A stretch of DNA of 64,000 nucleotides from an uncultured Alphaproteobacteria bacterium. GTDB lineage: Bacteria > Pseudomonadota > Alphaproteobacteria > HIMB59 > GCA-002718135. Below are positions 20,706 to 38,218 of this stretch, one piece after another. The stretch is from assembly GCA_902614085.1 (NCBI GenBank), contig CACMJS010000002.1:234268-298267 (forward strand). The letters are read 5' to 3'. Positions within the stretch are counted from its first letter, which is position 1. Each line of letters starts with the position of its first letter. The position numbers were made by a program, and so were the translations under genes. Below the pieces are notes generated by a model, which searched no databases, was not told where the DNA came from, and saw only the letters and a program-made list of their open reading frames with translations.

Positions 20706-21644
20706 ATGACTCAAATTAAACCTCTCTCTAGTATGGAAACTCCTCGCTTTGCTGACGTTGCTACTTTTTTTCGTTTACCTATTATAAAAGATTTAAATAA
20801 ATTAGACTACTGTGTTGCAGGCGTACCATGGGATGGAGGAACTACTAATAGACCTGGCGCTAGACATGGGCCAAGAGAAATTAGAAATGCATCGTCACTT
20901 GTAAGGCTTTATCACCCTGTTTCACTTAAGAGCCCTTATGATAAATTTAATATTGCAGATATTGGTGATTGTCCGGTAAATCCAGCAGACCTAAATGATA
21001 GTTTAGATAAAATAGAAAAATTTTACTCAAATATTTATAATTCCAAAACAATACCATTATCAATTGGAGGTGATCACTTAATTAGCCTACCAATTCTTAG
21101 AGGTATAGCAAAAGAAAAACCAATCGGTTTATTTCAGTTTGATTCTCATTCTGATACTTGGGACACTTATTTTGGAGGATTTAAATATACTCATGGCACA
21201 CCATTTAGAAGAGCTATAGAAGAAAATCTAATTGATCCAAAAAAATATGTAATCCTTGGTCTTCGTGGGGCTTTATATGATCCTGAAGATTTAAGTTGGG
21301 CTAGAGAACAAGGTGTAACTATTATTACTATAGATGATTATTATGAAATGGGATTTAATAAATGTATTGAAAAAATTTATGAAGTTCTAGTTAATACAGA
21401 TACTTATTTTACATTTGATATTGATGGAATAGACCCAACTTTTGCGCCAGGCACTGGGACTCCAGAAGTAGGAGGCTTTAATGTGAGAGAGGCACAAACT
21501 ATTATAAGAGCACTAAACAAAATCAACTTTGTAGGAGGTGATGTTGTAGAGGTATCACCACCATTTGATGTAAATAATATGACTTCATTAGTAGGAGCAA
21601 CAATTGCCTTTGAAATGCTTTGTACTATGACAAAAGTAAATTAA
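20706..21644 (+). CDS. Agmatinase-family ureohydrolase (SpeB / guanidino-acid hydrolase-like)
   Basis: Arginase-fold metal-binding motifs: GGDHLISLP, FDSHSDTW, DIDGIDP, EVSPPFD. Confidence 0.8.
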   Translation: MTQIKPLSSMETPRFADVATFFRLPIIKDLNKLDYCVAGVPWDGGTTNRPGARHGPREIRNASSLVRLYHPVSLKSPYDKFNIADIGDCPVNPADLNDSLDKIEKFYSNIYNSKTIPLSIGGDHLISLPILRGIAKEKPIGLFQFDSHSDTWDTYFGGFKYTHGTPFRRAIEENLIDPKKYVILGLRGALYDPEDLSWAREQGVTIITIDDYYEMGFNKCIEKIYEVLVNTDTYFTFDIDGIDPTFAPGTGTPEVGGFNVREAQTIIRALNKINFVGGDVVEVSPPFDVNNMTSLVGATIAFEMLCTMTKVN

Positions 21645-22204
21645 AACTCTTCGAAATTTGAAGCTCCAACACATAAAACATTTTTTAAATCTAGATATTT
21701 ATTAATATTATCTTTATTGACTCCACCTGTTGGAATAAATTTTATATCCTTTAGAATGTTTTCAATTGATTGTAATTTTTTTTGCTCTCCATTTAAATTT
21801 GCTGGAAAAAATTTAATTATTTTATAACCTTTTTTATTAAGATGTATAAACTCACTGACCGTTTCGGCTCCAGGAATATATAATAAGTTATTAATTTCTA
21901 AAATCTCATCAACAATTCCAGGAGAGACAAAAAAGTTAAAATTATGATCTTGACCCTTAATAAAATCCTCTTTTTTTAAAACTGAGCCCAACCCAAATTT
22001 ATGTTTGGTAAAATGTTTTTGTAATTCTAGTGCTATATCAAAAGATTGATTTTCTCTCAGTGTTACTTCAATATATCGAATAGATTTATTTTTCTCTAAA
22101 TATTTGCTTAAGCGATCAATATCATTGCTTACAGTTGTAGTATTAAGAATTGGTAAAATTTTTTGTTCTTTTAGTTTTAATTGTAATTCGCTATTTAACA
22201 TCAA
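21641..22204 (-). CDS. eda: KDPG/KHG-type class I aldolase (Eda-like)
   Basis: 187 aa. IKFFPA motif and a GGV... C-terminal region; directly downstream of kdgK. It is shorter and more divergent than a typical Eda. Confidence 0.65.
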   Translation of the reverse strand: MMLNSELQLKLKEQKILPILNTTTVSNDIDRLSKYLEKNKSIRYIEVTLRENQSFDIALELQKHFTKHKFGLGSVLKKEDFIKGQDHNFNFFVSPGIVDEILEINNLLYIPGAETVSEFIHLNKKGYKIIKFFPANLNGEQKKLQSIENILKDIKFIPTGGVNKDNINKYLDLKNVLCVGASNFEEF

Positions 22205-23087
22205 CTATTGCTCCTTTTTGCATGATTATCTTCGAGCCCAGAAGACTGGCTTCTTTCAGAGCTAAAGCTGGATCGTTATGAATAATAAAATTTGATACGT
22301 AGGCAGCATTAAATCCATCTCCAGCTCCTGAAGTATCAATTACTTTTCTAATAAATTTATTTCTTATTGTATATTTTTTTTTATTTTGAATTGAGTAAGT
22401 TAATTTAGCATTTTTTCTAAATATACCATGATCTATTTTGTATTTATTTATTAATTTTTCAAAATTACTTAAACTATTGTCATTTTTCCAAAATTGTAGA
22501 TCTTCACCTGACACAAAACAAATATCAACGAAATTTAAAATAGAATGCAAAAAATTGTTTAAATTTTTTTTAGTCCATCGATTAATTCTAATATTAAAAT
22601 CAAAGATAATTTTTACTTTTTTATTTTTTAATAATTTTAATAAATTAACAAAATTACTTATTTTAGATGGATCAATAATTGAAAGTGTAATTCCAGAAAA
22701 ATAGATATAATCAAAATTCTTCAAATTTTTAAATAATGAAACAAAATCTATCTTATTAAAGTAATTTTTTGCTGCACTATTATCTCTCCAATAAAAAAAT
22801 TGTTTTTCTCCGTTATTTCTATTCTTAATTAAATATAAACCAATTTCATGACTATTAACTTGCTTGATTAATTTTGTTGAAATTTTTTTAGAATTTATGA
22901 ATTCCAAAACTGATCTGTTTACACTAGTTTTACCAATGGCAGTAAGAAAAGAGACATCAAAATATTTTTTATCAATATAGTTACAAAAATTTAACGTATC
23001 ACCTGCAAATGATTGTTGAAAAATATTATTCTTAGTATTGGCAATTTCAATCATACATTCACCAACTGAACAAATTTTTGTTTTCAT
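22191..23087 (-). CDS. kdgK: 2-dehydro-3-deoxygluconokinase-like PfkB kinase
   Basis: PfkB family (DTSGAGDGFNAAY), adjacent to the Eda-like gene. Confidence 0.7.
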   Translation of the reverse strand: MKTKICSVGECMIEIANTKNNIFQQSFAGDTLNFCNYIDKKYFDVSFLTAIGKTSVNRSVLEFINSKKISTKLIKQVNSHEIGLYLIKNRNNGEKQFFYWRDNSAAKNYFNKIDFVSLFKNLKNFDYIYFSGITLSIIDPSKISNFVNLLKLLKNKKVKIIFDFNIRINRWTKKNLNNFLHSILNFVDICFVSGEDLQFWKNDNSLSNFEKLINKYKIDHGIFRKNAKLTYSIQNKKKYTIRNKFIRKVIDTSGAGDGFNAAYVSNFIIHNDPALALKEASLLGSKIIMQKGAIVDVK

Positions 23088-23095
23088 AATTAACT

Positions 23096-23419
23096 TTAGT
23101 CGTGATGAAAAACTTCTTCCATACTAGACCACCATTCTCCTTTTTTTCTATTTGGGTCTGGAATTTGACATGGTCCACAAACACTCCACCACTCTTGAAC
23201 TTTAGGGTTTGAAGCCATTAACTTATTATCTCTATCAAGATTGTCTCCGTGATATTCAACATATCCAAAAAGAGTATTTTTATGCAAATATATAGAATAA
23301 TTCTTAAAATTAAGTTCTGTTAAATTTTCTAAGACTTCAGGCCAAACATTTGCATGAAGTTTTTTATATTCTTCTATTTTTTCCTCTTTAATTCCAAGAG
23401 TCATACCTAATCTAATCAT
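23096..23419 (-). CDS. L-rhamnose/L-fucose mutarotase (RhaM/DUF718 family)
   Basis: 107 aa. YKKLHANVWPEVL...NYSIYL...WW pattern of the RhaM family; fucose-operon context. Confidence 0.75.
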   Translation of the reverse strand: MIRLGMTLGIKEEKIEEYKKLHANVWPEVLENLTELNFKNYSIYLHKNTLFGYVEYHGDNLDRDNKLMASNPKVQEWWSVCGPCQIPDPNRKKGEWWSSMEEVFHHD

Positions 23420-24880
23420 TTATAAATATTCCTTTCTTGTTATTTTAAAACTGTATGCATGCTCGCATGGTTTATTATCTGGTCTTGTTATATGGAGTCC
23501 ATCTCTGGTATGTTTCCATTCTACTTTATCAGTACTTCCTAATAATTCTACCCTTTCAATTTCATTATCAAAAAGTTTATATATACTTTCTATCGTAAAA
23601 TCTTTGCTAGGCCATCCTAATGCAGTTGCATACAAAAAATTATCTTTTGTAGTGAACCTAAAATCTTTAGCAGTATAAATTAGTTTTGCTCGATTATCTG
23701 AAAAAGGTCCTGCTTCATTCATTTTAGTTGGGCCTTCTCCATATTGATCCCATGTTTCTGTTTCAAATATTGCTTCTCCATTTACATCAAGCCAATTTCC
23801 AATACCTTCTAAAAGATTTTTATCTTCTTCTGGAATTGTTCCATCAGGTTTTGGCCCAATATTTAAGAGCATGTATCCATTTTTACTAACATTATCTATT
23901 AAGTAGTGAACTAAATCTGTCGTAGTTTTATATTTTGAATTCTTCATATAAGCCCAAGCACTTCCATCGTGGACTGTGGTATCAGTAATCCAATCATAGT
24001 GGGTTAATTCTGACTCTCTTCCTAGTTCAAGATCTAATAATCCAGAACCGGGGGGAAGATCATGCCATTTATAAGATACAACTACTTCATTACCCCACTC
24101 AGTTTCTTTGTTATAATAATATGAAAGAAAATCTTTTTTATACTTTTCATGAATAAATCTAATTCCAAAATCAAACCATACATAGTCTGGTTTATAATTA
24201 TCTACTACTTCTTTTAATCTATTTAACCATCTATCATGAAAAGCTTTACTAGGCTTGTCTTGATGTTCATTTTTTCTACCCCAATGATCAGGATATACAG
24301 CCTGATTTCCTATTAAATCTAAATTGTGAAGTTCACCATATAAACTTTCATATTCCTTTTTTGATGTATCAAAATCATTATTCCAGTGTGGGAAAAAAAA
24401 CCAGTTTTCAGCATGATGCATTGCTACCATATATTTCATCCCTTTATTTCTAATTGCTTTTTCAAGTTCTCCAACAATATCTCTTTTTGGCCCCATCTTA
24501 GATGCACACCATTCGGTATCAGAACAATTCCACATTGGAAAACCATCATGATGCTCTGCTACAGGTCCAGCAAATTTTGCTCCAGATCGATAATACAAAT
24601 CTGCCCACTCTTCTGCATTAAATTTTTCAGCAGTAAACATTGGTATAAAATCTTTATATCCAAATTTAGATGGATGACCATAATGTTTACAATGATAATC
24701 AAACTGAGGACTAGGTGGTCTATACATCCAATAAGGATACCACGTCACATTCGGTCCAGCAGCTGGAACAGAATAGATTCCCCAATGAGCATAAATACCA
24801 AACTTCGCTTTTTTAAACCAATTTGGTGTTTGATGTTGTTTTATTGATGACCAAGTTGGTTCAAAATAGTTTTGTTTCAT
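23420..24880 (-). CDS. Alpha-L-fucosidase, GH29, no signal peptide (cytoplasmic)
   Basis: N-terminus WFKKAKFGIYAHWGIYSVPA and the GH29-like strings HHDGFPMW and YVWFDF. The N-terminus is not hydrophobic. Confidence 0.85.
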   Translation of the reverse strand: MKQNYFEPTWSSIKQHQTPNWFKKAKFGIYAHWGIYSVPAAGPNVTWYPYWMYRPPSPQFDYHCKHYGHPSKFGYKDFIPMFTAEKFNAEEWADLYYRSGAKFAGPVAEHHDGFPMWNCSDTEWCASKMGPKRDIVGELEKAIRNKGMKYMVAMHHAENWFFFPHWNNDFDTSKKEYESLYGELHNLDLIGNQAVYPDHWGRKNEHQDKPSKAFHDRWLNRLKEVVDNYKPDYVWFDFGIRFIHEKYKKDFLSYYYNKETEWGNEVVVSYKWHDLPPGSGLLDLELGRESELTHYDWITDTTVHDGSAWAYMKNSKYKTTTDLVHYLIDNVSKNGYMLLNIGPKPDGTIPEEDKNLLEGIGNWLDVNGEAIFETETWDQYGEGPTKMNEAGPFSDNRAKLIYTAKDFRFTTKDNFLYATALGWPSKDFTIESIYKLFDNEIERVELLGSTDKVEWKHTRDGLHITRPDNKPCEHAYSFKITRKEYL

Positions 24881-24911
24881 CGCTTAATTAAATTTAAATT
24901 TATATAATCTT

Positions 24912-25736
24912 TTAAAGACTATAAAATTGAGTTGCATTTCGAGAAAATATTTTATTTTTTTCGTCTTCAGAAAAAGAATTGCAATAATTCATTGCTAAAT
25001 CAAACCAATTTGAATAATTATCTGCCATTGTTAAAACAGGCCAATCACTTCCCCACATTAATTTATCAGATCCAAAAGTGTTAAGAATAAAATCAATATA
25101 AGGATCAAGCTGTTCTTTTGTATAATCTGGACCAACTTCAGTGAGAATTCCAGAGAATTTACAATAAACATTACTTGCATTTGATAATTCAGTCATATCT
25201 TTTTTCCATTGGTCAATTTCAGATTTAGTAATCACGGGCTTAGCAATATGATCAATAACTATAGGAAGGAAATCATATTTTTTAACAAATTGTATAAGAT
25301 GTTGAAGATGATTTGGTCGAACTAAAGCGTCAAAAGTTAAATTTTTTGTATTTAAATATTTTATATTTTCTTTTAAGTGATCATTTAACATCCAAGCATC
25401 ATCTTGAATATCGTGAATCATAGGTCTAAAACCTTTTAAAAATTTACTCTCACAAAGTTTATCAATATCATCTTTAGCATTGTTACTATCTAGATCAACC
25501 CAACCCACCACGCCTGCAATAAATTCATATCTTAATGCTAAACTTAATGTAAATTCTGTTTCAGCAAACGTGTCAGCAGCTTGGACAATTACTGTTTTAG
25601 TTATATTTTTTTGTTTTATAAGTGGCTCAAGATCTTCTGGAAAAAAATCTTTATATAAGACTTTCATATCTGGGGTCATCCAAGAGTAATCTCCTCTTGA
25701 AAGTTTCCAAAAATGTTGATGACTATCTACGTACAT
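24912..25736 (-). CDS. Amidohydrolase_2 family lactonase (L-fucono-1,5-lactonase-like)
   Basis: MYVDSHQHFW N-terminus and a GSDWPV motif, typical of cog3618 lactonases. Adjacent to the fuconate dehydratase gene. Confidence 0.75.
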   Translation of the reverse strand: MYVDSHQHFWKLSRGDYSWMTPDMKVLYKDFFPEDLEPLIKQKNITKTVIVQAADTFAETEFTLSLALRYEFIAGVVGWVDLDSNNAKDDIDKLCESKFLKGFRPMIHDIQDDAWMLNDHLKENIKYLNTKNLTFDALVRPNHLQHLIQFVKKYDFLPIVIDHIAKPVITKSEIDQWKKDMTELSNASNVYCKFSGILTEVGPDYTKEQLDPYIDFILNTFGSDKLMWGSDWPVLTMADNYSNWFDLAMNYCNSFSEDEKNKIFSRNATQFYSL

Positions 25737-27032
25737 TTATTTCCAATAAGTACCATTATTATAATCAAATTCATTAAGAGAACTATCTTTAATTTTTACA
25801 GAATATCCTGGATTTGTAGGAGTAACATATCCACCATCTTTAATTATTGCTGGATTTTCAAAATGTTCAGAGCAGCTTTCTGCATATTCACTTAATAATA
25901 ATTCATGATTAGAAATTATAAACTTGTTGATTAAATTTAAATGTTGAACATATTCACATAAACCAACGCCACCTGCGTGAGGAATAACGGGGGTATTAAA
26001 CTTACTAGCTATTAAAAGAACTGGTAAAATTTCATTTATACTTGCAATTCTACAACTATCAATTTGGCAATAATCTAAAGATTTGTGTTCTATAAATTGT
26101 TTAAACATAACTTTATTTTGTATCATTTCTCCTGTTGCAAGATTAATGTCAGGATGTGCATCTTTAATTTTTTTAAAACCTAAAACATCATCAGGGTTGG
26201 TTGGTTCTTCATAGAATAAAATATCGAACTGTTTTAGTTTTCCAATATTTTCTATAGTCTCATTTACACTCCAGATTTGATTTGAATCTACCATCAATTT
26301 ATTATTATCACCTATTAATTCTCTTACTAATTTACAGCGATGGATATCTCTTTCTATATCTTGACCAACTTTCATTTTAAAATGAGTCCAACCCTTACTT
26401 AAATTTTCTTCAACTAGTCTTTTCATTTTTTCATCTGAATACCCCAGCCAACCAGCTGCAGTTGTGTATGCTGGAAAAATAGTGGAATTTAAATCGTCTA
26501 AGTTTGAAGGCAAACTTAGTTTTTTTTGATCAATTATTTTAGCCGCTTCATCTTTAGTAATTACATCGTCGATATAAGAAAAAGAGAGTTTATCTAATAA
26601 ATCTCTTGTTTCTAATTCTATTATGTATCTCCAAAGAGGTTTTTTATGAAATTTAGAAATTAAATCCCATATTGCATTAAAAAAAGCTGCAGCTGCAAGA
26701 TGCGTTACACCTTTTTGTGGCCCTACCCATCGTAATTGACTGTGGTTTGTAATTTTTTCCCATATGGATGCAATATCCCTCTCTATTTCCTCAATATTTT
26801 TTCCAATAATAAATTCTTTAAAGTATTCTATAACAGTACAACAAAGATCATTACCTTTTCCAATAGTAAAGGTTAATCCAATACCGGTTAGATCTTTTTG
26901 ATCAGTAAATATTGTGACATAAGTTGCAGAATAATCACAATCAACATGGACAGCATCAGTTCCCAAATTATCTTTTGATGTTGGAAAACGAATATCCTGA
27001 GTTTTAATATCAATTATTTTCATATTGGACAT
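25737..27032 (-). CDS. L-fuconate dehydratase-like enolase-superfamily (mandelate racemase subgroup) enzyme
   Basis: 431 aa. N-terminus KIIDIKTQDIRFPTS, then FKMKVG, YEEP and HAGGVGLCE, consistent with the FucD-type family. Confidence 0.75.
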   Translation of the reverse strand: MSNMKIIDIKTQDIRFPTSKDNLGTDAVHVDCDYSATYVTIFTDQKDLTGIGLTFTIGKGNDLCCTVIEYFKEFIIGKNIEEIERDIASIWEKITNHSQLRWVGPQKGVTHLAAAAFFNAIWDLISKFHKKPLWRYIIELETRDLLDKLSFSYIDDVITKDEAAKIIDQKKLSLPSNLDDLNSTIFPAYTTAAGWLGYSDEKMKRLVEENLSKGWTHFKMKVGQDIERDIHRCKLVRELIGDNNKLMVDSNQIWSVNETIENIGKLKQFDILFYEEPTNPDDVLGFKKIKDAHPDINLATGEMIQNKVMFKQFIEHKSLDYCQIDSCRIASINEILPVLLIASKFNTPVIPHAGGVGLCEYVQHLNLINKFIISNHELLLSEYAESCSEHFENPAIIKDGGYVTPTNPGYSVKIKDSSLNEFDYNNGTYWK

Positions 27033-28021
27033 CTTTCATCAATTAGTTTTTCATTAAGTAAATCTTTCCACAAATCTTCAGGGATTGGAAAATTTAAAAA
27101 TCCTAAGTTTTGCTCCACTTGATCAAGCCTATCCATGCCTAATATCATGGAAGTGACAAGTTTATTAGTATAACAAAATTGTATTGCTGCTGCCGGGACA
27201 GGCACATCATATTTTTTACAAATATTTGCAATTTTTAAGTATCGTTGTTTAACTTCTTCTGGAATTTTATCATAAAAATAAGTAATATTTTCACCTACAC
27301 CTTTAGCTAAAATTCCTGAATTAAAAATTCCTGCAAGAATAATTCCTATATTATTTTTTTCAGCAATAGGGAAAAAATCATTGAGAGCATTTTGATCCAA
27401 TAATGAATATCTGCCTGCTAGAACCATACAATCAAAATCGCCTGCATTTGCAAATCTTGCACATATATCAGAGTCATTTACTCCTACTCCAATAGCTTTG
27501 ATAACTTTTTCTTCTTTTAGTTTTTGTACAGCTTTATACGCGCCATCCATTGCTAATTTAAAATAATGATCAACCTCGTCACCAAAATTAAATCGATCTA
27601 CATCATGAATTAAACAAATATCTACTTTTGAAACAGCTAATCTTAGTAATGATTGCTCAAATGCTCTCATCACACCGTCATAAGAGTAATCGAGATTAGG
27701 AGAAAAATTTAAACTTCCTGCAAATCTCCCTGTATCTATATTTTCTTTTTTTGCTGGTGTAAGATATCTTCCAACTTTGGTTGATAAAAAATAACTATCC
27801 TCATCTACAGTTTTTAAAAAATTTCCTAATCTATGTTCACTTAATCCATAACCATATAAAGGTGATGTATCATAAATATTGACTCCTTTTTCATAGCTTT
27901 TTTCAAGTATGTCATAGCAATTTCGTTCATCAAGATTTTCAAATAAATTGCCTAAGGGTGCTCCACCAAAACCAATAGCTGTTAAGTTTATATCAGTTTT
28001 TCCAAGCTGTCTTTTATTCAT
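27020..28021 (-). CDS. Aldo/keto reductase, D-threo-aldose (L-fucose) 1-dehydrogenase-like
   Basis: AKR motifs (IGFGGAPLGN, DTSPLYGYGLSE, IHDVD); operon context. Confidence 0.7.
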   Translation of the reverse strand: MNKRQLGKTDINLTAIGFGGAPLGNLFENLDERNCYDILEKSYEKGVNIYDTSPLYGYGLSEHRLGNFLKTVDEDSYFLSTKVGRYLTPAKKENIDTGRFAGSLNFSPNLDYSYDGVMRAFEQSLLRLAVSKVDICLIHDVDRFNFGDEVDHYFKLAMDGAYKAVQKLKEEKVIKAIGVGVNDSDICARFANAGDFDCMVLAGRYSLLDQNALNDFFPIAEKNNIGIILAGIFNSGILAKGVGENITYFYDKIPEEVKQRYLKIANICKKYDVPVPAAAIQFCYTNKLVTSMILGMDRLDQVEQNLGFLNFPIPEDLWKDLLNEKLIDERCPI

Positions 28022-29522
28022 GAATATTTCCCATAATTGATGAACTCATTTCTTCATAGTTATGATTATTGATAGTTTCACCAACTACCTTAAAATCTTT
28101 CATTGTTATAATTCTATCTGCTAAGCTAATCATTTCAGGCATATCACTGGTAATTAAAATTATTGATGTGCCTTTTAAAGATAGTTCAATAATTAATTCA
28201 TGAAGGTAAGATTTTGTTTTTATATCTATACCAACTGTGGGTTCATCAATAAATAATATATCAGTTCCAGAAGCTAGCCATTTAGCTACACTAATTTTTT
28301 GCTGATTACCTCCAGATAAGTTAGAAACGATTTGTTGGTATGAAGGTGTTTTTACTTCAAGTTGTTTCACATAAGGATCTACTTTATTGTAAACAATACT
28401 GTCATTTAAAAATGATAATATTTTTTTCAAATTTGACCAGACTGTTATTCCAGCATTCGATAAAACATCATGCATTAGAATTAATCCCTCTTTTTTTCTG
28501 TCTTCACTTATGTATCCAATTTTATATTTTTCTAGTGCATCTTTTGGAGACTTAATTTTAATTTCTTTATTGTTGAGTAAAATCTGTCCAGAATTAATTT
28601 TATCTAACCCCATTACACATTTTATTAATTCTGTTCTTCCTGCACCAACTAAACCGTATAATCCAAGTATTTCACCTTTTTTTAAATTTAAATTAATATT
28701 TTTATGACCAAGGTCAGTGTTTATTGATTGTAGATCTAGTAAACTTTCATCTGTAAAATCAATATTTTTCTTAGATTTAATTATTTGTTCATCTCTACCA
28801 ATCATTAATTTAACAAGTTTCTGTCTATTAAGATTAGTAATTTGTTCAGACTCACAAGCATTTTTACCATCTCTCAAAACAGTAACTTCATCACAAATTT
28901 CAAATACTTCCTCTAATTTGTGACTTACAAAAACTATACTTACATCTTGTTCAGCAACTAATCGTTTAAGTAAGGCAAATAAATTTTTTGTATCTTGTGG
29001 GGATAATGATGAAGTTGGCTCATCTAATAATAGTATTTTTGATTCTAAGGATAAGGCTTTAGCTATTTCACACAGTTGCATTTTTGCAACTGTTAAATCT
29101 GATACTATTGTATTTGGATCTATATCCAGCTCCATAATATCGAGCCATTTTTTTGATTCTTTGGCAACAGTATTATAATCAATTAATCCTAAATTATTTT
29201 TAGGGAGGTTGGTTAACATTAAATTTTCACCAACTGAAAACCTCCTAATTAAATTTCTTTCTTGGTGCACAACTGAAATTCCAGCATTCATTGCTTCATT
29301 AGGTGAAGAAAAAGACTTCTCTTGATTATTTAAAAATAGCTTTCCTTCATTTTGATTATATACTCCTGTAATAATTTTAATTAATGTAGATTTTCCTGCT
29401 CCATTTTCACCAAGAAGTGCATGGATTGATTTTTTTTTGAGTCTAAAGTTTGCATTATCAAGAGCTTTAACACCAGGAAAATTTTTTGTAATGTTATTGA
29501 GTTCTAAAATATAATCACTCAT
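28014..29522 (-). CDS. Sugar ABC transporter ATP-binding protein, tandem ATPase (CUT2, RbsA-like)
   Basis: 502 aa with two ABC domains (GENGAGKST; LSGGNQQK). Confidence 0.9.
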   Translation of the reverse strand: MSDYILELNNITKNFPGVKALDNANFRLKKKSIHALLGENGAGKSTLIKIITGVYNQNEGKLFLNNQEKSFSSPNEAMNAGISVVHQERNLIRRFSVGENLMLTNLPKNNLGLIDYNTVAKESKKWLDIMELDIDPNTIVSDLTVAKMQLCEIAKALSLESKILLLDEPTSSLSPQDTKNLFALLKRLVAEQDVSIVFVSHKLEEVFEICDEVTVLRDGKNACESEQITNLNRQKLVKLMIGRDEQIIKSKKNIDFTDESLLDLQSINTDLGHKNINLNLKKGEILGLYGLVGAGRTELIKCVMGLDKINSGQILLNNKEIKIKSPKDALEKYKIGYISEDRKKEGLILMHDVLSNAGITVWSNLKKILSFLNDSIVYNKVDPYVKQLEVKTPSYQQIVSNLSGGNQQKISVAKWLASGTDILFIDEPTVGIDIKTKSYLHELIIELSLKGTSIILITSDMPEMISLADRIITMKDFKVVGETINNHNYEEMSSSIMGNIHE

Positions 29523-30483
29523 CTGAAAAAACCTTTGTTCTTCTCTCTTCTCTATATTCTCTGTATCTATTTATAAATACCGCTAATAAAATCATAAATC
29601 CTAAAAATATTTGAACAAAAAAAGGATCAATTTTAAAAATTACTAAAGCTTGAGAAATTATAGAAACTAATATCACACCAAAAGCAGTAGCAATAACATC
29701 TACTTTTCCACCAGCAAGTATAGCGCCTCCAATTACCGGAGCAGCAAATGAAGGTAATAGCCAAGAATCACCTATATTGGGTGTCCCAAGTTGTAATCTA
29801 CAAACCACTAACATTCCACCGATAGCAGCTAAAAGGCCTGATATAACATGGGCATAAATAACTATTTTTGTTGAAGATATTCCTATTAGTTCTGATGATT
29901 GTACATTATTCCCATATGCCAGCATATACCTTCCAAGTGATGTTCTATTCATTAAAATCCACATCAGCACAGTTATAATAATTGGTATAATAACTAAATA
30001 AGGTATAGGGCCAAAGATTTTTGCATTTCCAAAAAATTTAACAGCCTCAGGAATTTCATAAAAAGGTTGAGCCTCTGTTATTCCTAAATTCATTCCTTTA
30101 AAAATGTAAAGTGTAGCAAGAGTAATAATAAAAGCTGATATGCCAGTTTTAACAGTGATGTATCCATTTATAAAACCACAAGCAAGACCAATTAATAATC
30201 CAATTAGAACAGCAGGTAAAATAGACATGCTATAAACTTCCATTAAGCCAGTAAATGAAATCGCAACTAAGCCACCAATTGCTCCAACAGATAAGTTCAT
30301 TTGACCAATTGCAATGATAATCATTTGTGACATTGCCACAACGAGCATCAAACTAACACTCAGCATTAAAACATATAAATTAAATGGAGAAATAAATGCA
30401 GGCTTAAACAATGAAATTAAGATTGAACCAAAAATTAAAACTAAACCAAGTCCAAACCAATCTTTTTTTAAAAGTGCGCTCAT
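29515..30483 (-). CDS. Sugar ABC transporter permease (CUT2, RbsC-like)
   Basis: 322 aa with about 10 TM segments; BPD_transp_2-type. Confidence 0.85.
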   Translation of the reverse strand: MSALLKKDWFGLGLVLIFGSILISLFKPAFISPFNLYVLMLSVSLMLVVAMSQMIIIAIGQMNLSVGAIGGLVAISFTGLMEVYSMSILPAVLIGLLIGLACGFINGYITVKTGISAFIITLATLYIFKGMNLGITEAQPFYEIPEAVKFFGNAKIFGPIPYLVIIPIIITVLMWILMNRTSLGRYMLAYGNNVQSSELIGISSTKIVIYAHVISGLLAAIGGMLVVCRLQLGTPNIGDSWLLPSFAAPVIGGAILAGGKVDVIATAFGVILVSIISQALVIFKIDPFFVQIFLGFMILLAVFINRYREYREERRTKVFSDE

Positions 30484-31466
30484 GAAACAATTGAATTTTT
30501 AACAGTAAAATATTCTCTAGCTCTATCTAGCAGAACAGCTCCTAATAATATGATCCCAAGAAAAAATCTTACCCAAAATTCACCAACGTCAATTAAGTAT
30601 AATCCATTATTTATTAATGTGACAAGAATTGCCCCTAGCATTGTTCCAAAAACTGTAACCTTACCACCAGAAAGAAGTGTTCCACCCAATACTGGAGCTA
30701 AAAAAGCAGGTAATAACCAATCAAATCCAAGATGACCGGCCATAGACGGTATTGCAGCACCAATTCTTGCTGTTAACATAATACCTGCAAGTGCTGCTAA
30801 GAAGCCTGACAACATATGACAGTAAATAAACATTCTATCTACAGAAATACCTGATAATTCTGCAGCATCAGGATTAGCTCCAGCTGCGATAAGCTTTCGG
30901 CCAATATCAGTGTATTTAAAAATGTAATAAAGTACAAAACAAGTCAGCACACTGATAATTAGTAATGGTGAAATATATTTATTGAAAAGTTTTAAACTTC
31001 CAAAATCAGTAAAAGCCTCTGGTAATTTTCTAAAAGCTTCTGCTTCAGTTAGCAAGGTCATGAAGCCAAAATAAATACTCATCGTTGCTAGTGTAACAAT
31101 GAAACTATGAACACCTGTTCTAACAGTTACAAATCCATTAATCCAACCCAGAAATGAACCAAAAGCTAAAACTAAAATGATTGTAATAGAAATAGGAATT
31201 CCCATACTTTCCATACACCAACCACCAAACATTGCTGCAGAAACACCTAAAGCACCTAGAGATAGATTTAAGCCTCCAGTAAGTATAACTACCATCATTG
31301 CTAAACCAATCATTATATCTAGAGCAACTACTCTTGAGAGAGCATAAATATTGAATCTTGAAGTAAATCCATCAGTTGAAAAGGAAAAAATACAAATAAA
31401 TACAATTACCAAAATAAGTAAACCAAACTGATTAGTTTTTACAAAATTAGGAATTTTATTATTCAT
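30480..31466 (-). CDS. Sugar ABC transporter permease (CUT2, RbsC-like)
   Basis: 328-aa paralog of the adjacent permease. Confidence 0.85.
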   Translation of the reverse strand: MNNKIPNFVKTNQFGLLILVIVFICIFSFSTDGFTSRFNIYALSRVVALDIMIGLAMMVVILTGGLNLSLGALGVSAAMFGGWCMESMGIPISITIILVLAFGSFLGWINGFVTVRTGVHSFIVTLATMSIYFGFMTLLTEAEAFRKLPEAFTDFGSLKLFNKYISPLLIISVLTCFVLYYIFKYTDIGRKLIAAGANPDAAELSGISVDRMFIYCHMLSGFLAALAGIMLTARIGAAIPSMAGHLGFDWLLPAFLAPVLGGTLLSGGKVTVFGTMLGAILVTLINNGLYLIDVGEFWVRFFLGIILLGAVLLDRAREYFTVKNSIVS

Positions 31467-31473
31467 AAAAAAA

Positions 31474-31490
31474 GGGGGCTTAATGCCCCC
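31474..31490 (-). terminator. Intercistronic GC hairpin plus T-tract between the SBP gene and the first permease gene
   Basis: On the minus strand it reads GGGGGC-ATTAA-GCCCCC followed by TTTTTTT. The T-tract abuts the permease ATG (31464-31466). Confidence 0.7.
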
Positions 31491-31498
31491 ATATTATT

Positions 31499-32527
31499 TT
31501 AACTTGGACAGTTTAGATATGTGCTATCAAAAGTTTCTAAAATTTCTAGAGAAATTCCTCTCATAGCCATAACGTATGTATCAACATCGCTAATATCAAC
31601 AAATACAGTACCTGAATCAATAAATTGATCAGTTTGTGCAGTTGATTTCCAAGGTGCATCAGCTTTGAACTCACAACCTTGTCTAACTTTGTCCATTACA
31701 TATGAACCAATGTAACCTTGTCCATATGGGTTTTGAAGCATAGTTCCATGAACATAACCATCTTTAATAGCTTTTAAAACTACTTCGTCATGATCAATAC
31801 CAACCATTTTAATTCTTTTATCGCCCATATTAGTTAAAGCTTGTGCTGCTACAACAGCAGGAACCCAAGCAGTAGTAACAATACCATCTACTTCACTTCC
31901 TTGAGCTGCCATGAAAGCATTAATTTTTTCATCAGCTGGTTCATAAGCATCAATATCAGCAATAACTTGAATAATTTCTACTCCACCACCTGCTTCTGAA
32001 ACAGCTTGTTCAACAGCATTGATTCTTAGAGTTGTATTTGGATCAACTAAGAAACCAGTAAAGTGAGCAATTTTTCCTTTGCCACCTAAAGCTTTAATTA
32101 ATTCTTTTGTACCAAGATAAGCTGAGTGACCAGTGTCAGTTCCAAAACAAAATTTTGCTTGAGTTGGTTGTTCAACACATCCTGCTAAAGCAGCTGTTGG
32201 TATACCAGCATCATCTAGTTCACCTAAAATTTTATTTGTACCAACTGCATCACCAGGAAATACAAGTACTGCATTGTAACCTTGACCAACTAAACTTTCA
32301 ATTAACTCGTTTTGTTGACTTAGATCCCACTCTGCAGGGACTCTGTAATCTGCTTTTCCTAAACCAAAGTCTTCTACAGCATCTAAACCTGCTTGTTCCC
32401 ACGCAGCAAAATAAGGGTGAGGGCCACCAGGGACTAGAGCTACTTTAGTAACACCATGACCACCGGCAAAAACAGGTGATACTAGTAAAGCAAAAAAAGA
32501 AGTTAAAAATATTATAAATTTTTTCAT
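31499..32527 (-). CDS. Periplasmic monosaccharide-binding protein (CUT2, RbsB-like)
   Basis: 342 aa with signal peptide MKKFIIFLTSFFALLVSPVFA. Peripla_BP_4-like and rich in Ala/Gly/Val. Confidence 0.85.
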   Translation of the reverse strand: MKKFIIFLTSFFALLVSPVFAGGHGVTKVALVPGGPHPYFAAWEQAGLDAVEDFGLGKADYRVPAEWDLSQQNELIESLVGQGYNAVLVFPGDAVGTNKILGELDDAGIPTAALAGCVEQPTQAKFCFGTDTGHSAYLGTKELIKALGGKGKIAHFTGFLVDPNTTLRINAVEQAVSEAGGGVEIIQVIADIDAYEPADEKINAFMAAQGSEVDGIVTTAWVPAVVAAQALTNMGDKRIKMVGIDHDEVVLKAIKDGYVHGTMLQNPYGQGYIGSYVMDKVRQGCEFKADAPWKSTAQTDQFIDSGTVFVDISDVDTYVMAMRGISLEILETFDSTYLNCPS

Positions 32528-32631
32528 TATTCCTCCTTAAATTTTTTTTAATGTATTCAGATTTAGAACTTAAATCAACAAAAATAAAATAAAGTATTTA
32601 TTTATAATTATATTGATTATACTATTGTCAT

Positions 32632-33819
32632 ATGCTGTACTCATTTAGATGGTTTGGTCATAATGATCCTTCAAAATTAGATCAAATTCGACAGATAGGC
32701 GTTGAGGGAATCGTATCATCACTAGCACAAGTAAAATATGGTGAAAAATGGTCTGCATTTGAAATCAAGAAAAGAAAGAAATTTATTGAAAGTTTCAAAA
32801 TTAATAACAATAAAAATTTAACTTGGAGTGTTGTTGAAAGTCTTCCTGTCCATAATGACATAAAAAAGAGGTCAGGGAGATATAAATATTACATAGATCA
32901 ATACAAAGAGTCATTGATAAATTTAGGAAAGAATAAGATTAAAAATATTTGTTACAATTTTATGCCATTGATTGATTGGGTGAGAACAGATTTAAATCAT
33001 CAACTACCAAATGGAGCATTTGCTCTAAAATATAATCATCTTCATGTCTGTGCATTTGAAAATTTTATTTTGAAATCAAAAACAGCAAAAAAAAGGTATT
33101 CATCTAAAGAAATCCATACTTCAAAAAAAATATTACAAAAAATGAATTCTAGTGATTTAAAAAAACTTAAGATGTCTTTACTTGGAGGGTTAGCTGCAAA
33201 CGATAGAAAGTATACAATTAAAGATTTAAATTATGAGATTGATCAATTTGTAGAATTAAATCATAGTGATTTACAAAATAATTTAAAAGATTTTATAGAA
33301 GAAATTTATCCAATCATAAAAAAATATAATATTCATTACAATATTCATCCAGATGATCCTCCATATAATGTTTATGGATTACCAAGAATTGTTTCTAATG
33401 AAAAAGATATTAATTTTATTGTGAATATAAAAAAAGATATAAATGTAGGTTTAACTTTTTGTACAGGATCCCTTGGTGTTAATAAAAAAAATAACTTAGT
33501 TAATATAATTAAAAAATATGGTTCTTATATAAATTTTATTCATTTAAGAAATATAAGACACATTCCAAAATCTCTTGATTTTTATGAAGATGACCACCTT
33601 AATGGAAGCCTGGACATGGTGTCTATTGTCAAAGCAATATTAAAAGAAGAAAATAAAAGGAAAAAAAGTAATCATCCTATTAAACAAATTCCTATGAGGC
33701 CTGATCATGGGCATACAATACTTCATGACCAATTTAATTCAGTAATACCTGGATATTCATTATTAGGCAGAATGAAAGGGCTAGATCAGCTTAAAGGTGT
33801 AATAAAAGCTATAAATTAA
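32632..33819 (+). CDS. uxuA: Mannonate dehydratase
   Basis: N-terminus FRWFGHNDPSKLDQIRQIG resembles the UxuA RWYGPNDPV motif; 395 aa. Confidence 0.8.
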   Translation: MLYSFRWFGHNDPSKLDQIRQIGVEGIVSSLAQVKYGEKWSAFEIKKRKKFIESFKINNNKNLTWSVVESLPVHNDIKKRSGRYKYYIDQYKESLINLGKNKIKNICYNFMPLIDWVRTDLNHQLPNGAFALKYNHLHVCAFENFILKSKTAKKRYSSKEIHTSKKILQKMNSSDLKKLKMSLLGGLAANDRKYTIKDLNYEIDQFVELNHSDLQNNLKDFIEEIYPIIKKYNIHYNIHPDDPPYNVYGLPRIVSNEKDINFIVNIKKDINVGLTFCTGSLGVNKKNNLVNIIKKYGSYINFIHLRNIRHIPKSLDFYEDDHLNGSLDMVSIVKAILKEENKRKKSNHPIKQIPMRPDHGHTILHDQFNSVIPGYSLLGRMKGLDQLKGVIKAIN

Positions 33820-34858
33820 TTTTTACCTTATATTTATTTGCTAAAAACAAAAAATCAGTTTTTAATTCCTTATCAATTGGAATACCTGTTTTTAATCTTT
33901 TTTTAGAAGTAATTTTTTCTTTTTCACCTGGATATAAAATTGGATTATTATTTTTTTTTGATTTTTGTTTTTGTAGATCACTCATATAGTTTTTCATACC
34001 TTTAAAATATTGTTTTTTTGTAGTGAAAGCATTTAATGAAATGGCGATTAAGAAATGTCCTAACTTTCTTGGTGTACTAAAATCTGGTCCAATCATTGAT
34101 AATAAACGGTATCCATGAGCCATACCAATAAGAGGTCCACACATTATTTCTACAGAAGAAGATAATCCAAAACCTTTATACCCATATTCTTTACCTCCAA
34201 GTGGAGCCAAAGAAACAGCGTTATAAGGGTTAGTCGTGTAGTTTCCGGATTTATCAAGTGCAATCTCAGAGTTTAATTTAGTAGAATTTGCTCTGGCTCT
34301 CATAACTTTATTCCATGCTATCGAAGTTGAAGAAAAATCTGCATGTAAAAAGTCTTTATTACCTATTGGTGCTGTAAAAGAATAAGGATTAGTCCCATGA
34401 AAAGGTTTCTTACCATTATACGGTATTGCAAAAGCATCTGAGTGTGTAAATGAAAAACCAACACAGTCGTTTTGTGCAATATCCATAGAATATACACCTG
34501 CAGCACCATAGTGTGAAGAGTTTATTATGCCAATTGAAGCAATGCCATTCTTCTTTGCCATAGATGATACTATTGCTGATGCCTTTAAAGCTGCTACATG
34601 CCCTAAGCCATCATCAGCATCATAGACAGCTACACCTCTATTTTTTTTTATAAGCTTCATTTTAGGTTTTGCTTTTATTCTTCCGTTTTCAATACATTTT
34701 ACATAATGAGAAAATAATCTAATACCATGACTGTCCACGCCTCTAATAGAAGAATCTAAAAGTGATTTAATAAGTAAATTTCTATCTTTTTTTGGAACAG
34801 ATAGTTTTGATAAAATGCTATCAAAAAATTTATTTATATTGTTGGTTAAAATTTTCAT
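33809..34858 (-). CDS. Ldh_2 family oxidoreductase (malate/L-lactate/sulfolactate/2,3-diketogulonate dehydrogenase family)
   Basis: 349 aa. RGVDSHGIRLF, SSHYGAAG and FHGTNP motifs of the Ldh_2 family. The substrate cannot be determined from sequence. Confidence 0.75.
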   Translation of the reverse strand: MKILTNNINKFFDSILSKLSVPKKDRNLLIKSLLDSSIRGVDSHGIRLFSHYVKCIENGRIKAKPKMKLIKKNRGVAVYDADDGLGHVAALKASAIVSSMAKKNGIASIGIINSSHYGAAGVYSMDIAQNDCVGFSFTHSDAFAIPYNGKKPFHGTNPYSFTAPIGNKDFLHADFSSTSIAWNKVMRARANSTKLNSEIALDKSGNYTTNPYNAVSLAPLGGKEYGYKGFGLSSSVEIMCGPLIGMAHGYRLLSMIGPDFSTPRKLGHFLIAISLNAFTTKKQYFKGMKNYMSDLQKQKSKKNNNPILYPGEKEKITSKKRLKTGIPIDKELKTDFLFLANKYKVKINL

Positions 34859-34859
34859 C

Positions 34860-36290
34860 TTATGAAATTATTTCTTTTAATAATGATTTTAAAGGATTTT
34901 CTTTCATTAAATTTAGATTTTTTTTGACTGCTGCTAACATTTCTTCTTTTTTACTTTCCGAAAGATTAAAAATATTTTTATTATTAATTATTTCTTCAAA
35001 AAAATTATCCTTATTATTTTTGTAAACACTGTAAAAATATTCTTTATTTCCATCATCCAGTCTATTTTGATCTTCTTCAATAATTTGAAATAAGAAAAAT
35101 AACCAAGAGGCTATGATAAATTGAATATATTTAGTTGCTCCTTTATTATTATTGTAGGTATCAAGTATTCTTATAGGTATTTTTAAAGAACCATCCATAG
35201 CAATTCTTAACAATTTATCCTCTATGTAGGTATTTTTAAATCTTTCTAAAATTTTCATTTTGTACTCATTAATATTAAAGTCATCTTTAGTTTCTAAAGT
35301 GGGTATCACTTCTTGGTCTAAAAAATTTAAAATAAAATTGTAAATATTTTTATCCTCTATTGCTTCATGAACATATGTATACCCACACAAATGACCAATG
35401 TATGCTACAGCTGAGTGGGAAGCATTCAGTATTTTAAGTTTATTATTTTCATAAAATTTTACATCTTCAACAAATTTTATTTTATTATTTGATAAAATAT
35501 TTTTTAGCTCATCATTATTTGATTGAATATACCAATCTCTATAAGGTTCAGTAACCACAATTGTATTATCATTATATGGCAAGTTAAAATATTCAGATTG
35601 TTTATTATTATTTGGAACAATTCCATCAACCATAGATAATGGGAACTCAATATTATTATCAAACCAATCTAAACACTTTGGATATTTTTTTTCTATAAAT
35701 TGTTTAACTAAATTTTTTAAAATTGTTCCATTTTCAGACAAATTATCACAACTTAAAACAATTAATTTTTTTTTGTTTTTCTTATATCTTTCTATTATTC
35801 CAAAACTTAGATGACCTATCAAAGTTGATAATTCTTTATCCTCTAGATCATTAATAATTTGATTCGAAAAATTTAATTTTTTATTTTTATCAAAATGATA
35901 TCCCTTTTCAGTAACAGTAATTGTAATTAATTTAATTTTTTCAGATACAATTAAATTTCTTATTTCATTCTTGTGTTTTAAACCAAATAAAACTTTTTTA
36001 ATTGGATTTAAAATATCAACTTTTTTGTAATTATTTGATATCCTTACCAAAGAATACAAGTAGTCTTGTAACTGCATTTTATTATTTGTTTCTTCAGACC
36101 TTAAATTGACCCCAATTATGGAAATGTTTTTATTATTTTCTAATATTTCATGAATATATAGTGCTTGGTGAGCTCTATGAAAATTACCAATACCAAAATG
36201 AAGTATGCAATCTTCATTATTATTAATATTATAACTTGGAAATGATTGTTCTTTTAAAAGATTTCTATTTATGTTTTTATTTAATTGCAT
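34860..36290 (-). CDS. Mannitol dehydrogenase family oxidoreductase (fructuronate/tagaturonate reductase-like)
   Basis: 476 aa. ILHFGIGNFHRAHQALY N-terminal motif; next to uxuA. Confidence 0.75.
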   Translation of the reverse strand: MQLNKNINRNLLKEQSFPSYNINNNEDCILHFGIGNFHRAHQALYIHEILENNKNISIIGVNLRSEETNNKMQLQDYLYSLVRISNNYKKVDILNPIKKVLFGLKHKNEIRNLIVSEKIKLITITVTEKGYHFDKNKKLNFSNQIINDLEDKELSTLIGHLSFGIIERYKKNKKKLIVLSCDNLSENGTILKNLVKQFIEKKYPKCLDWFDNNIEFPLSMVDGIVPNNNKQSEYFNLPYNDNTIVVTEPYRDWYIQSNNDELKNILSNNKIKFVEDVKFYENNKLKILNASHSAVAYIGHLCGYTYVHEAIEDKNIYNFILNFLDQEVIPTLETKDDFNINEYKMKILERFKNTYIEDKLLRIAMDGSLKIPIRILDTYNNNKGATKYIQFIIASWLFFLFQIIEEDQNRLDDGNKEYFYSVYKNNKDNFFEEIINNKNIFNLSESKKEEMLAAVKKNLNLMKENPLKSLLKEIIS

Positions 36291-36320
36291 ATTAATAATT
36301 AAAATATACTTAAACAGAAG

Positions 36321-37073
36321 ATGATCAATAAAATATATAAAAGTGTGCTTATAACTGGTGCATCAAGTGGTATTGGCTTAGAAACACTTAAAAGATTTTT
36401 AAAAGAAAATGTAAAAGTTTATGCTCTTGATAAAGACGTTTCAATCTTAGAGAAATTGAAAAAAAAACATAAATTTGAAATCATTCAAATTGATCTCTTT
36501 GACACGGATCAAATTTATAAAAAACTCTCCAAAGTAAAAGTTGATATTGTAGTTTGTAATGCAGGCATTGGAAGAGGGGCTGAAGGTATATTAAAAGCGT
36601 CAAGGCAAGATATTGAATTATCTACAAGATTAAATGTCGAGTCTTATCTTCATACTTTAAAAGCTATTGTTCCAGGAATGATAAAAAGAAGAAAAGGACA
36701 TGTAGTTTTAATGGGGTCTCTTGCAGGTCTATATCCACAAATGAGTACTGTTTATGGTGGTCAAAAAGGTGCTATCCATAGAATCGCACAAAGCTTAAGA
36801 ATTGAACTTAGCGGTTCAAGAGTTAAAGTTTCTGAAATATGTCCTGGAAGAACTAAAACAAATTTTGGTAAAGCTGCATTTACAGATAAAAATAAAGCTA
36901 AAAAATTTATGTCTGGTTTTACTCTTCTCGAGCCAAGAGATATTGCTGATGCTATTATGTTTGCAGTAAGTGTTAGATGGCGAAGCAATATTAGTACTAT
37001 TGAAATTTCTGGCACAGAACAATCCCCAGGTGGAGTGCCGATTATTCCAGTAAAAGATCCAATACTTTCATAA
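36321..37073 (+). CDS. Short-chain dehydrogenase/reductase (classical SDR)
   Basis: ITGASSGIG, NAGIG and YGGQK (YxxxK) motifs. Confidence 0.85.
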   Translation: MINKIYKSVLITGASSGIGLETLKRFLKENVKVYALDKDVSILEKLKKKHKFEIIQIDLFDTDQIYKKLSKVKVDIVVCNAGIGRGAEGILKASRQDIELSTRLNVESYLHTLKAIVPGMIKRRKGHVVLMGSLAGLYPQMSTVYGGQKGAIHRIAQSLRIELSGSRVKVSEICPGRTKTNFGKAAFTDKNKAKKFMSGFTLLEPRDIADAIMFAVSVRWRSNISTIEISGTEQSPGGVPIIPVKDPILS

Positions 37074-37114
37074 ATTAATTAAATATTTTTTATTTTAATA
37101 TAATAAAATTAATT

Positions 37115-38218
37115 ATGGAAAAACCTGTCAGATTTGGTGTTATTGGCATAGGAGGTATGGGAGCAAATCATGCTAAAAAATTGCAAGAGAATAAAATAGA
37201 AAATGCCATCTTAGCCGCAGTTGCTGATTCAAATGTAGAATATAAAAATAAATATGAAAATATTCCTTTTTTTGAAAATACTGATAATTTTTTTGATAAT
37301 AAAATTATAGATGCGGCAATCATTGCTACACCTCATAAATCGCACATAGATCTAGCGAAAAAAGCTCTCGAAAATAATATTAATGTTATAATTGAAAAAC
37401 CCTTAGCAATAACTAGTAAAAAGTGTCGAGAATTTATTAATATTTCACAAAGTTTTAAAACATTTTTTACTGTTATGCTAAATCAAAGGACTAATCCTGT
37501 TTATGTTAAGATAAAGGAACTAATTAATGGAAACGAATTAGGTAAAGTTCACCGTTTTCAATGGACAATAACTAATTGGTTTAGAACAAACTATTATTAT
37601 CAGACGTCTAATTGGAGAGCTAAATGGGAAAGTGAAGGTGGGGGCGTTTTAATAAATCAGAGTATTCACCAACTTGATTTGTGTCAGTGGTTATTTGGTA
37701 TGCCTGACAGTGTATATACTGATTTGGGATTAGGTCGCTTTCATGAGATAGAAGTTGAAGATGAAGTGACTTCAATCTTTAAATATAAAAATGGATTAAA
37801 AGGTGTATTTATTACAACAACAGGTGAAGCTCCTGGTGTAAACAGATTGGAAATTGCATCAGATAAGGGTTTAATTACAATTCAGGATAATAATGTTACA
37901 TGGGAAAAAATAGATTCATCTACTGAATTTATTAAAAACTCTAAAACACTTTTTGGAATGCCTAAGAAAGAAAAAATTAATTTCAATTTTAAGGCTGATT
38001 TGGATCAACATATTGAGCATCAAAGACTTATTCAAAACTTTACAAACTTCCTCCTAGGAAAAGAAAAACTGTTAGTGAATGGAAAAGATGGTTTAAATTC
38101 AGTTGAATTAATTAATGCGATGGTTCTATCGGGATTAGAGGAAAAAAAAATAGAGCTTCCTTTAGATGAGGTTAAATATGAACAAAAATTAGAAGAAATG
38201 ATAAGTAAATCAAGATGA
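37115..38218 (+). CDS. Gfo/Idh/MocA family oxidoreductase
   Basis: N-terminal Rossmann fold RFGVIGIGGMGANH, plus the EKP motif (IIEKPLA). Confidence 0.85.
   Translation: MEKPVRFGVIGIGGMGANHAKKLQENKIENAILAAVADSNVEYKNKYENIPFFENTDNFFDNKIIDAAIIATPHKSHIDLAKKALENNINVIIEKPLAITSKKCREFINISQSFKTFFTVMLNQRTNPVYVKIKELINGNELGKVHRFQWTITNWFRTNYYYQTSNWRAKWESEGGGVLINQSIHQLDLCQWLFGMPDSVYTDLGLGRFHEIEVEDEVTSIFKYKNGLKGVFITTTGEAPGVNRLEIASDKGLITIQDNNVTWEKIDSSTEFIKNSKTLFGMPKKEKINFNFKADLDQHIEHQRLIQNFTNFLLGKEKLLVNGKDGLNSVELINAMVLSGLEEKKIELPLDEVKYEQKLEEMISKSR

Follow-up and report, generated by a model that had tools for sequence, protein, structure and literature searches.

Gene content of the operon

The subject of this analysis is an eleven-gene, L-fucose-type operon of an uncultured alphaproteobacterium of the order HIMB59. 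It lies in a stretch of 64,000 nucleotides (the window; GenBank assembly GCA_902614085.1, contig CACMJS010000002.1, positions 234,268 to 298,267), and the host assembly (G000) has 1,648,007 bases and is 96% complete. Eleven open reading frames (ORFs) in the ORF list of the window, all on the minus strand, follow one another between 32527 and 21641. The intervals between them, from the sugar-binding protein gene to eda, are 32, -4, -8, -8, -13, 0, 31, 0, 8 and -14 nt; five junctions overlap, and the largest gap is 32 nt. This spacing suggests that the eleven genes are co-transcribed. The first-pass annotation had described a co-directional operon of the same families, which is borne out by the ORFs and by the Pfam and NCBIfam matches. 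The operon most probably combines (probability about 0.77) the upper half of an L-fucose pathway, which would be finished by enzymes encoded on another contig, with a kdgK-eda module that would serve as a sink for 2-keto-3-deoxygluconate (KDG).

The first gene (31499-32527) encodes the 342-aa sugar-binding protein (SBP) of a CUT2 transporter (PF13407), whose predicted ligand is an L-fucose-type monosaccharide. It is followed by permease 1 (30480-31466, 328 aa), recognized by position and sequence and kept in the same order in relatives, by the AraH/RbsC-like permease 2 (29515-30483, 322 aa, PF02653) and by an AraG/RbsA-like ATPase with tandem domains (28014-29522, 502 aa). The enzymes encoded next are a putative aldose 1-dehydrogenase of the aldo-keto reductase (AKR) family and the L-fucose/L-galactose type (27020-28021, PF00248 Aldo_ket_red), an L-fuconate dehydratase, FucD, of the type called A below (25737-27032, MR_MLE_C) and a putative L-fuconolactonase of the cog3618 type (24912-25736, Amidohydro_2). 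After these come a putatively cytoplasmic GH29 α-L-fucosidase or α-L-galactosidase (23420-24880, PF01120 Alpha_L_fucos and PF16757 Fucosidase_C) and a RhaM-family mutarotase (23096-23419, PF05336). The string ends with a KdgK-type KDG kinase of the PfkB family (22191-23087) and a short, 187-aa form of Eda, the aldolase for KDPG (2-keto-3-deoxy-6-phosphogluconate; 21641-22204, PF01081). At its 3' end eda shares 4 nt with the convergent gene speB.

A hairpin with six all-GC base pairs and a U7 tail stands 3' of the SBP gene on the minus strand (31474-31490). It had been pointed out before and is confirmed as a sequence feature, with a folding z-score of only -1.3, which is not far from shuffled sequences. 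The element is terminator-like in sequence and is a possible attenuator or mRNA stabiliser. The Rfam scan of window positions 18000-48000 gave no match, and the promoter scan was uninformative (55 sites against 72 expected).

Upper pathway

The SBP is 84-91% identical to roseobacter SBPs located with fucD, rhaM and lactonase genes, and an identical protein (100%) occurs in single amplified genomes (SAGs) belonging to g__AG-337-I02, order HIMB59. The PDB search gave no ligand-solved close relative of it, and PDB and Atlas together gave generic sugar-binding proteins only. Among solved structures, the five best relatives of the AKR enzyme all belong to L-galactose dehydrogenases (E 1e-31 to 7e-25). 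The lactonase has L-fucono-1,5-lactonase as its best NCBIfam model (219 bits against a cut-off of 400) and 4DLF as its sole PDB match (6e-37).

FucD falls within the FucD/ENOSF1 subgroup of the enolase superfamily: it matches human ENOSF1 at E 9e-125 and the FucD of Xanthomonas campestris at 4e-119, and the next subgroup follows at 6e-34. Its KxK, D/E/E, D and H positions, which we take to be the catalytic and metal positions, are invariant across 78 sequences. FucD is known to accept L-galactonate, and the X. campestris enzyme has residual activity with D-altronate. The upper fucose-type route and its enzyme families, as named in the first-pass annotation, are supported.

Lower pathway on another contig

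The lower part of the L-fucose route was found on C1, another contig of the same genome, outside the window. A search of the genome for the FAH family gave one gene (C1:394857-395717), flanked by a short-chain dehydrogenase/reductase (SDR; C1:394102-394869) and by an FMN-dependent L-lactate dehydrogenase, LldD, so that the three genes form one block (C1:394102-396871). The SDR matches human BDH2 (1e-85) and the Herbaspirillum huttiense 2-keto-3-deoxy-L-fuconate (L-KDF) 4-dehydrogenase (8XWK/8Y11/8Y4J, 3e-66). It keeps R148, T183, R192, R214 and W252 together with the catalytic triad S-Y-K across 36 sequences, one ortholog being cut before W252. R148, R192 and R214 are the carboxylate-binding arginines and W252 forms the methyl pocket; with these residues the protein has the signature of a type-1 L-KDF 4-dehydrogenase. 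The adjoining FAH-family protein is closest to the L-2,4-diketo-3-deoxyrhamnonate hydrolase 8GSR (5e-87) and scores 389 bits on NF053535, whose cut-off is 500. The substrate of 8GSR is identical to the fucose-pathway intermediate (PMC11199699).

The first-pass annotation had remarked that neither a dehydrogenase nor a hydrolase of this kind is present, which is true of the operon only, and had proposed a non-canonical lower pathway in which KdgK and Eda replace them. Canonical genes for both enzymes elsewhere in the genome, together with strict KDG/KDPG specificity of KdgK and Eda, had been named beforehand as what would refute that proposal. On the genomic half of this test the SDR-FAH-lldD block is present on C1, and the novel terminal branch is rejected. 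An SDR gene inside the window (36321-37073) was also considered as the L-KDF dehydrogenase and was discarded; it scores best on a YdfG-like model and moves together with the uxu genes.

Two types of L-fuconate dehydratase in congeneric genomes

The survey covered 60 congeneric genomes, 53-90% complete, in which an absence means that the gene was not found; for many of these genomes the two loci were inspected directly. FucD was present in 50 of the 60, exactly one type in each: type A in 21 and type B in 29. Type A is 72-100% identical to the FucD of the window and is sited in the island beside speB, while type B is about 51% identical to it. Wherever a type-B locus was fetched (20 in all), fucD-B stands directly before the SDR gene, and in the 19 whose contig continues it precedes the whole SDR-FAH-lldD string. 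Type-A genomes have galE at the position held elsewhere by fucD-B. The SDR is held by 16 of the 21 type-A genomes.

No genome had both types, against about ten expected under independence; the hypergeometric P of 6e-9 overstates the case because it treats the genomes as independent. Kinship as the source of this exclusion is unsupported by the gyrB tree, on which the type labels are unclustered (9 changes against 9.7 after shuffling; one gene, 28 labelled genomes). In the FucD tree the two types form separate clades, type A grouping with roseobacter FucDs. From the exclusion and the position of fucD-B beside SDR-FAH, the most economical reading is that whichever FucD is present feeds one and the same dehydrogenase-hydrolase pair. 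Such a one-or-the-other distribution at unlinked loci appears to be new.

Upstream of fucD-B, the type-B genomes carry an uncharacterised module (L065:184-10476 on G019 C2; L053-L072). It holds CUT1 ABC genes, a RraA-like aldolase, a MaoC-like protein, a second binding-protein-like ORF, a family III CoA-transferase and a second enolase-superfamily enzyme, and it occurs as well in two sister-family genomes.

Proposed route and its known counterparts

The favoured reading can be written out as follows, with substrates and fluxes predicted from the gene families, the active-site residues and the distribution of the genes. The CUT2 transporter would take up the free sugar, and from small glycosides delivered by another importer GH29 would release it in the cytoplasm. 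The mutarotase, the AKR dehydrogenase, the lactonase and FucD would then convert it to L-KDF. This would be oxidized by the L-KDF 4-dehydrogenase of C1 and split by the FAH hydrolase into pyruvate and L-lactate, and LldD would turn the lactate into pyruvate. L-Galactose and D-arabinose could run through the same enzymes. The kdgK-eda pair would be the KDG sink of the genome, yielding pyruvate and glyceraldehyde 3-phosphate by way of KDPG; it would be fed mainly by uxaC, uxuB and uxuA, while sharing the transcript of the fucose genes at the border of a variable sugar island.

The fucose route of this genome is already known as a published prediction, and no new pathway is involved. A two-operon non-phosphorylating fucose route was predicted for Candidatus Indicimonas (AEGEAN-169 clade II) by Oggerin et al. 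2024 (PMC11366302, Figs S11-S12), and Table S7 of that paper gives GCA_902614085.1 as SAG AG-891-K05 of this genus, with 28.7% GC. Operon 1 of the scheme (ABC transporter, AKR, mandelate racemase-family enzyme, amidohydrolase, mutarotase and GH29) corresponds to that of the window, and operon 2 (SDR, FAH and L-lactate dehydrogenase) to the C1 block. The GH29 of this group has been published as well. The scheme, like the present one, is a prediction. The kdgK-eda pair, the exclusive FucD types and the L-galactosidase likeness of GH29 are not discussed in the text and legends of PMC11366302.

Among characterised systems, route 3 of the non-phosphorylative L-fucose pathway in X. campestris (XCC4067/XCC4069) and H. 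huttiense (FucF/FucG) has its FucD, type-1 L-KDF dehydrogenase (R-T-R-R), FAH hydrolase and mutarotase represented here, with candidates for its lactonase and aldose dehydrogenase. Unlike those systems, the present one is divided between two unlinked loci, uses CUT2 ABC uptake, has lldD appended and carries kdgK-eda on the upper operon.

GH29 and the identity of the sugar

The GH29 protein was expected to lack a signal peptide, and it does. Its N-terminus has no hydrophobic stretch (maximum ten-residue hydropathy 0.08), and with only 31 nt upstream of the gene there is no room for one. The retaining-fucosidase residues are conserved, namely the nucleophile D237, E285, which is the probable acid/base from the alignment, H110, H111 and the O4-binding H32. 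The closest solved structure is the exo-α-L-galactosidase BpGH29 of Bacteroides plebeius (PDB 7LJJ, 7LK7, 7SNK; 4e-112), and the second-best solved matches are α-L-fucosidases. Residues H68, V141, D264, E312, D327, W335 and N366 of BpGH29 are identical here. D327, which holds O6 of L-galactose in place, corresponds to D300 here. Unlike BpGH29, the window enzyme has no signal peptide and no porphyran locus around it, and W265 is mostly replaced by F. Of 139 sequences, 138 have T or S where the O3-binding Glu (E66 in TmaFuc, E80 in BpGH29) would stand, and the Asn two positions ahead of it is invariant in this set.

The resulting GPN-x-[TS]-W motif (residues 42-47), in place of the usual E-W, is common to about 120 homologs without signal peptides from Chloroflexota and other groups, and these proteins possibly make up an uncharacterised subfamily. 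The likeness to an α-L-galactosidase that lacks the O3-binding Glu appears to be new, and L-galactosides are possible substrates. It is a rather doubtful proposition that the subfamily cleaves α-L-galactosides or 3-O-modified fucosides, in which case the operon would serve L-galactose-type sugars instead of, or besides, L-fucose. KdgK and Eda might join such a route through KDG, although they need not.

GH29 is an accessory gene of the island; it occurs in 20 of the 60 relatives, and type-A loci that are complete in other respects lack it. In two relatives (G007 and G032) a CUT1 importer is inserted directly before it. This supports a separate oligosaccharide importer, which the first-pass annotation had deduced from the pairing of a cytoplasmic glycosidase with a monosaccharide transporter; of that suggestion, the CUT1 candidate gains some support from these two loci. 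The insert between the lactonase and GH29 genes (L046:9978-16994 in G007; L048 in G032) holds an SDR, a GntR-like regulator and desaturase-like and PhyH-like ORFs along with a CUT1 system, the names other than CUT1 coming from a look at the sequence only. A lone permease remnant of it occurs in G029 (L047:11406-11894) and in L170.

Bacteroides-type L-galactose catabolism runs via a Zn-dependent L-galactonate 5-dehydrogenase. A GH29 homolog 65% identical to that of the window stands in a GH29-AKR-lactonase-Zn-dehydrogenase string, and we take this string to resemble the Bacteroides route; the genome of the window has no matching Zn-dehydrogenase, its best match to one candidate query being 26% identical. 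L-Galactose released from α-L-galactosides, rather than L-fucose, might be proposed as the main substrate of the operon, with the same upper and C1 enzymes giving pyruvate and L-glycerate. Besides that string, the O6-fixing Asp of GH29 and the L-galactose dehydrogenases nearest to the AKR enzyme point the same way. The sugar would also be usable without any new enzyme, since FucD and the L-KDF dehydrogenase accept the L-galactose series; the H. huttiense dehydrogenase acts on 2-keto-3-deoxy-L-galactonate (L-KDGal) with a kcat/Km of 1480 against 7900 for L-KDF, its efficiency on KDG being about 1%. However, characterised FucD and L-KDF dehydrogenases prefer the fucose series. FucD itself, the W252 methyl pocket kept in the C1 SDR and the lldD gene fixed behind the hydrolase, which fits L-lactate formed from a 6-deoxy sugar, point to a 6-deoxy substrate, and the α-L-fucosidases among the solved GH29 matches agree with them. 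L-Galactose is an unlikely main substrate on this balance.

KdgK, Eda and the hexuronate genes

The hexuronate genes lie next to the fucose module. Divergent from the SBP gene across a 104-nt gap is uxuA, a mannonate dehydratase predicted to make KDG (32632-33819, plus strand; 394 bits on TIGR00695, over the cut-off of 199.55). Further on, the minus strand carries a UxuB-like reductase of the mannitol dehydrogenase family (34860-36290), below all equivalog cut-offs and not separated from UxaB or DalD by them, and a divergent UxaC-like uronate isomerase (38978-40192). The isomerase gave no Pfam match at 1e-4; its homologs are named glucuronate isomerase, with an Atlas score of 0.99. An Ldh_2-family dehydrogenase resembling ureidoglycolate and sulfolactate dehydrogenases (33809-34858, minus strand, below cut-offs) holds a fixed place between uxuB and uxuA in the type-A islands. 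Genes for all five types of the Ashwell hexuronate pathway (UxaC, UxuB, UxuA, KdgK and Eda), those of UxaC and UxuB being candidates, lie within 19 kb. In contrast to that pathway as known, the fucose module comes between kdgK-eda and the uxu genes, the isomerase is divergent, and the reductase could be UxuB, UxaB or DalD. With uxuA, the reductase and the isomerase beside the fucose module, the island would make KDG and therefore need a sink for it.

The kinase and the aldolase most likely handle KDG. The kinase has KdgK (NF052444) as its best model, at 198 bits against a cut-off of 400 that no relative passes either, and its relatives of known structure comprise two KDG kinases plus an uncharacterised sugar kinase. 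The GDxxN, GxY, YWR, DxNxR and AGD motifs common to KDG kinases are invariant in 36 sequences. It is the sole one of six PfkB genes tied to KdgK, the other five being judged from neighbours and N-termini. The genome has a single PF01081 gene, eda, whose product is above the cut-off of that family and at 130 bits against the TIGR01182 cut-off of 156. Eda keeps the positions numbered E45, R49, K133 and T161 in Escherichia coli and the phosphate pocket G162, G163 and S184. In 39 sequences E46, R50, K131, T159, G160 and G161 are invariant, with S or T at 182. The C-terminus is about 25 residues shorter than in E. coli Eda, and relatives are likewise 183-187 aa long.

The module also separates from the fucose genes. 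In a type-B genome (G002, whose fucD-B sits at another locus) the corresponding stretch (C11, L073:2618-5236) differs from the window by three clean gaps, through which the CUT2 genes, fucD together with the lactonase gene, and 148 nt of rhaM are lost; uxuA, AKR, GH29, kdgK and eda are kept. Another genome (G053) has kdgK-eda without fucD-A, whereas G030 and G037 have type-A fucD with the island kdgK-eda absent and uxuA not found. Roseobacter loci have the order ABC-fucD-rhaM(-lactonase), and neither kdgK nor eda occurs in their vicinity. GC at codon positions 1-2 is 0.27 for kdgK, 0.30 for eda, 0.26-0.31 for uxuB, uxaC and uxuA, and 0.34-0.49 for the fucose genes, a weak sign that the pair is nearer to the hexuronate genes in composition. 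Over 21641-41208 the former five genes are richer in K, N, I and F than the fucose genes, and third-position GC is alike. Of three explanations offered by the first-pass annotation for the presence of KdgK and Eda, service to the nearby hexuronate genes fits best, given the kinase motifs, the KDPG pocket and the separation of the module; the L-galactose explanation now bears only on which sugar enters.

KdgK and Eda could alternatively be tied to FucD through KDG, formed from D-altronate, from L-KDGal by oxidation and reduction at C5, or from L-galactonate via tagaturonate and altronate. The residual D-altronate activity of the X. campestris FucD would allow the first of these, several SDRs and the uronate isomerase could provide the others, and kdgK-eda follows rhaM by 8 nt in most type-A loci. 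Against such a link, no KduD was found above its cut-off (best 176 against 339 bits), a search with a single candidate query for the Zn-dependent L-galactonate 5-dehydrogenase gave a best match of 26% identity, and a separate UxaA/GarD-family dehydratase is encoded at C1:712712. No UxaE was found in the genome. Moreover, kdgK-eda and fucD-A each occur without the other. This connection is very unlikely. It is scarcely credible that Eda splits L-KDF directly into pyruvate and L-lactaldehyde as a new terminal branch, an idea prompted by its place in the operon, its short and divergent sequence and the aldolase route for L-KDF known in other bacteria (route 1, FucH), when its phosphate pocket is conserved, eda stays paired with a kinase and occurs without fucD-A as fucD-A does without it, and the canonical lower route is encoded in the genome.

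Several observations weigh against the combination of an upper fucose half with a KDG-sink module. Several of the enzymes score under NCBIfam equivalog cut-offs, and the nearest solved relatives of both GH29 and the AKR enzyme act on L-galactose. The SDR was not detected in five type-A genomes (53-84% complete). The island kdgK co-occurs about equally with uxuA-A (13 of 14) and fucD-A (12 of 14), a comparison without discriminating power, since all of them belong to one island and only a few genomes separate the two. In seven type-B genomes (75-89% complete) uxaC and uxuA were present and no kdgK or eda was found; hexuronate use in the genus is therefore not always dependent on KdgK and Eda, and in these genomes KDG may leave via the SDR and the FAH hydrolase. 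These genomes are G019, G021, G022 and G049 (L076, L077, L078, L085), and also G018, G045 and G047. The four loci read hold uxuB, which looks broken in G019, and a GH31 glycosidase and CUT1 genes are in the island.

Other sugar-acid loci

A second sugar-acid cluster lies at C1:476904-484121. It comprises a lactonase-like ORF, an IlvD/Edd-family dehydratase, an enolase-superfamily enzyme, an amidohydrolase, a second mutarotase-like ORF and a Gfo/Idh/MocA enzyme, and it may be an upper route for L-rhamnose or a pentose feeding the same hydrolase. The UxaA/GarD-family dehydratase mentioned above (C1:712712-715015, PF04295) scores 382 bits on the galactarate dehydratase model, below cut-off, and is divergent from an SDR resembling xylose dehydrogenase; it is another possible source of KDG. 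In the window, a 460-aa ORF beside the CUT1 operon (47937-49319) matches the L-fucose isomerase C-terminal domain PF02952 with 23.6 bits, below cut-off.

Significance

Candidatus Indicimonas makes up about 5% of cells in surface water of the South Pacific Gyre (PMC11366302). For this organism the operon itself matters little, as it confirms the published prediction that fucose-type sugars can be used by a known route. The exclusive distribution of the FucD types gives independent genomic support for a shared lower pathway, and is a neat example of one gene replacing another within a flexible genome. Should the GH29 enzyme be an L-galactosidase or accept modified fucose, it would represent a new GH29 specificity group, and this would change the view of which algal sugars the clade recycles.

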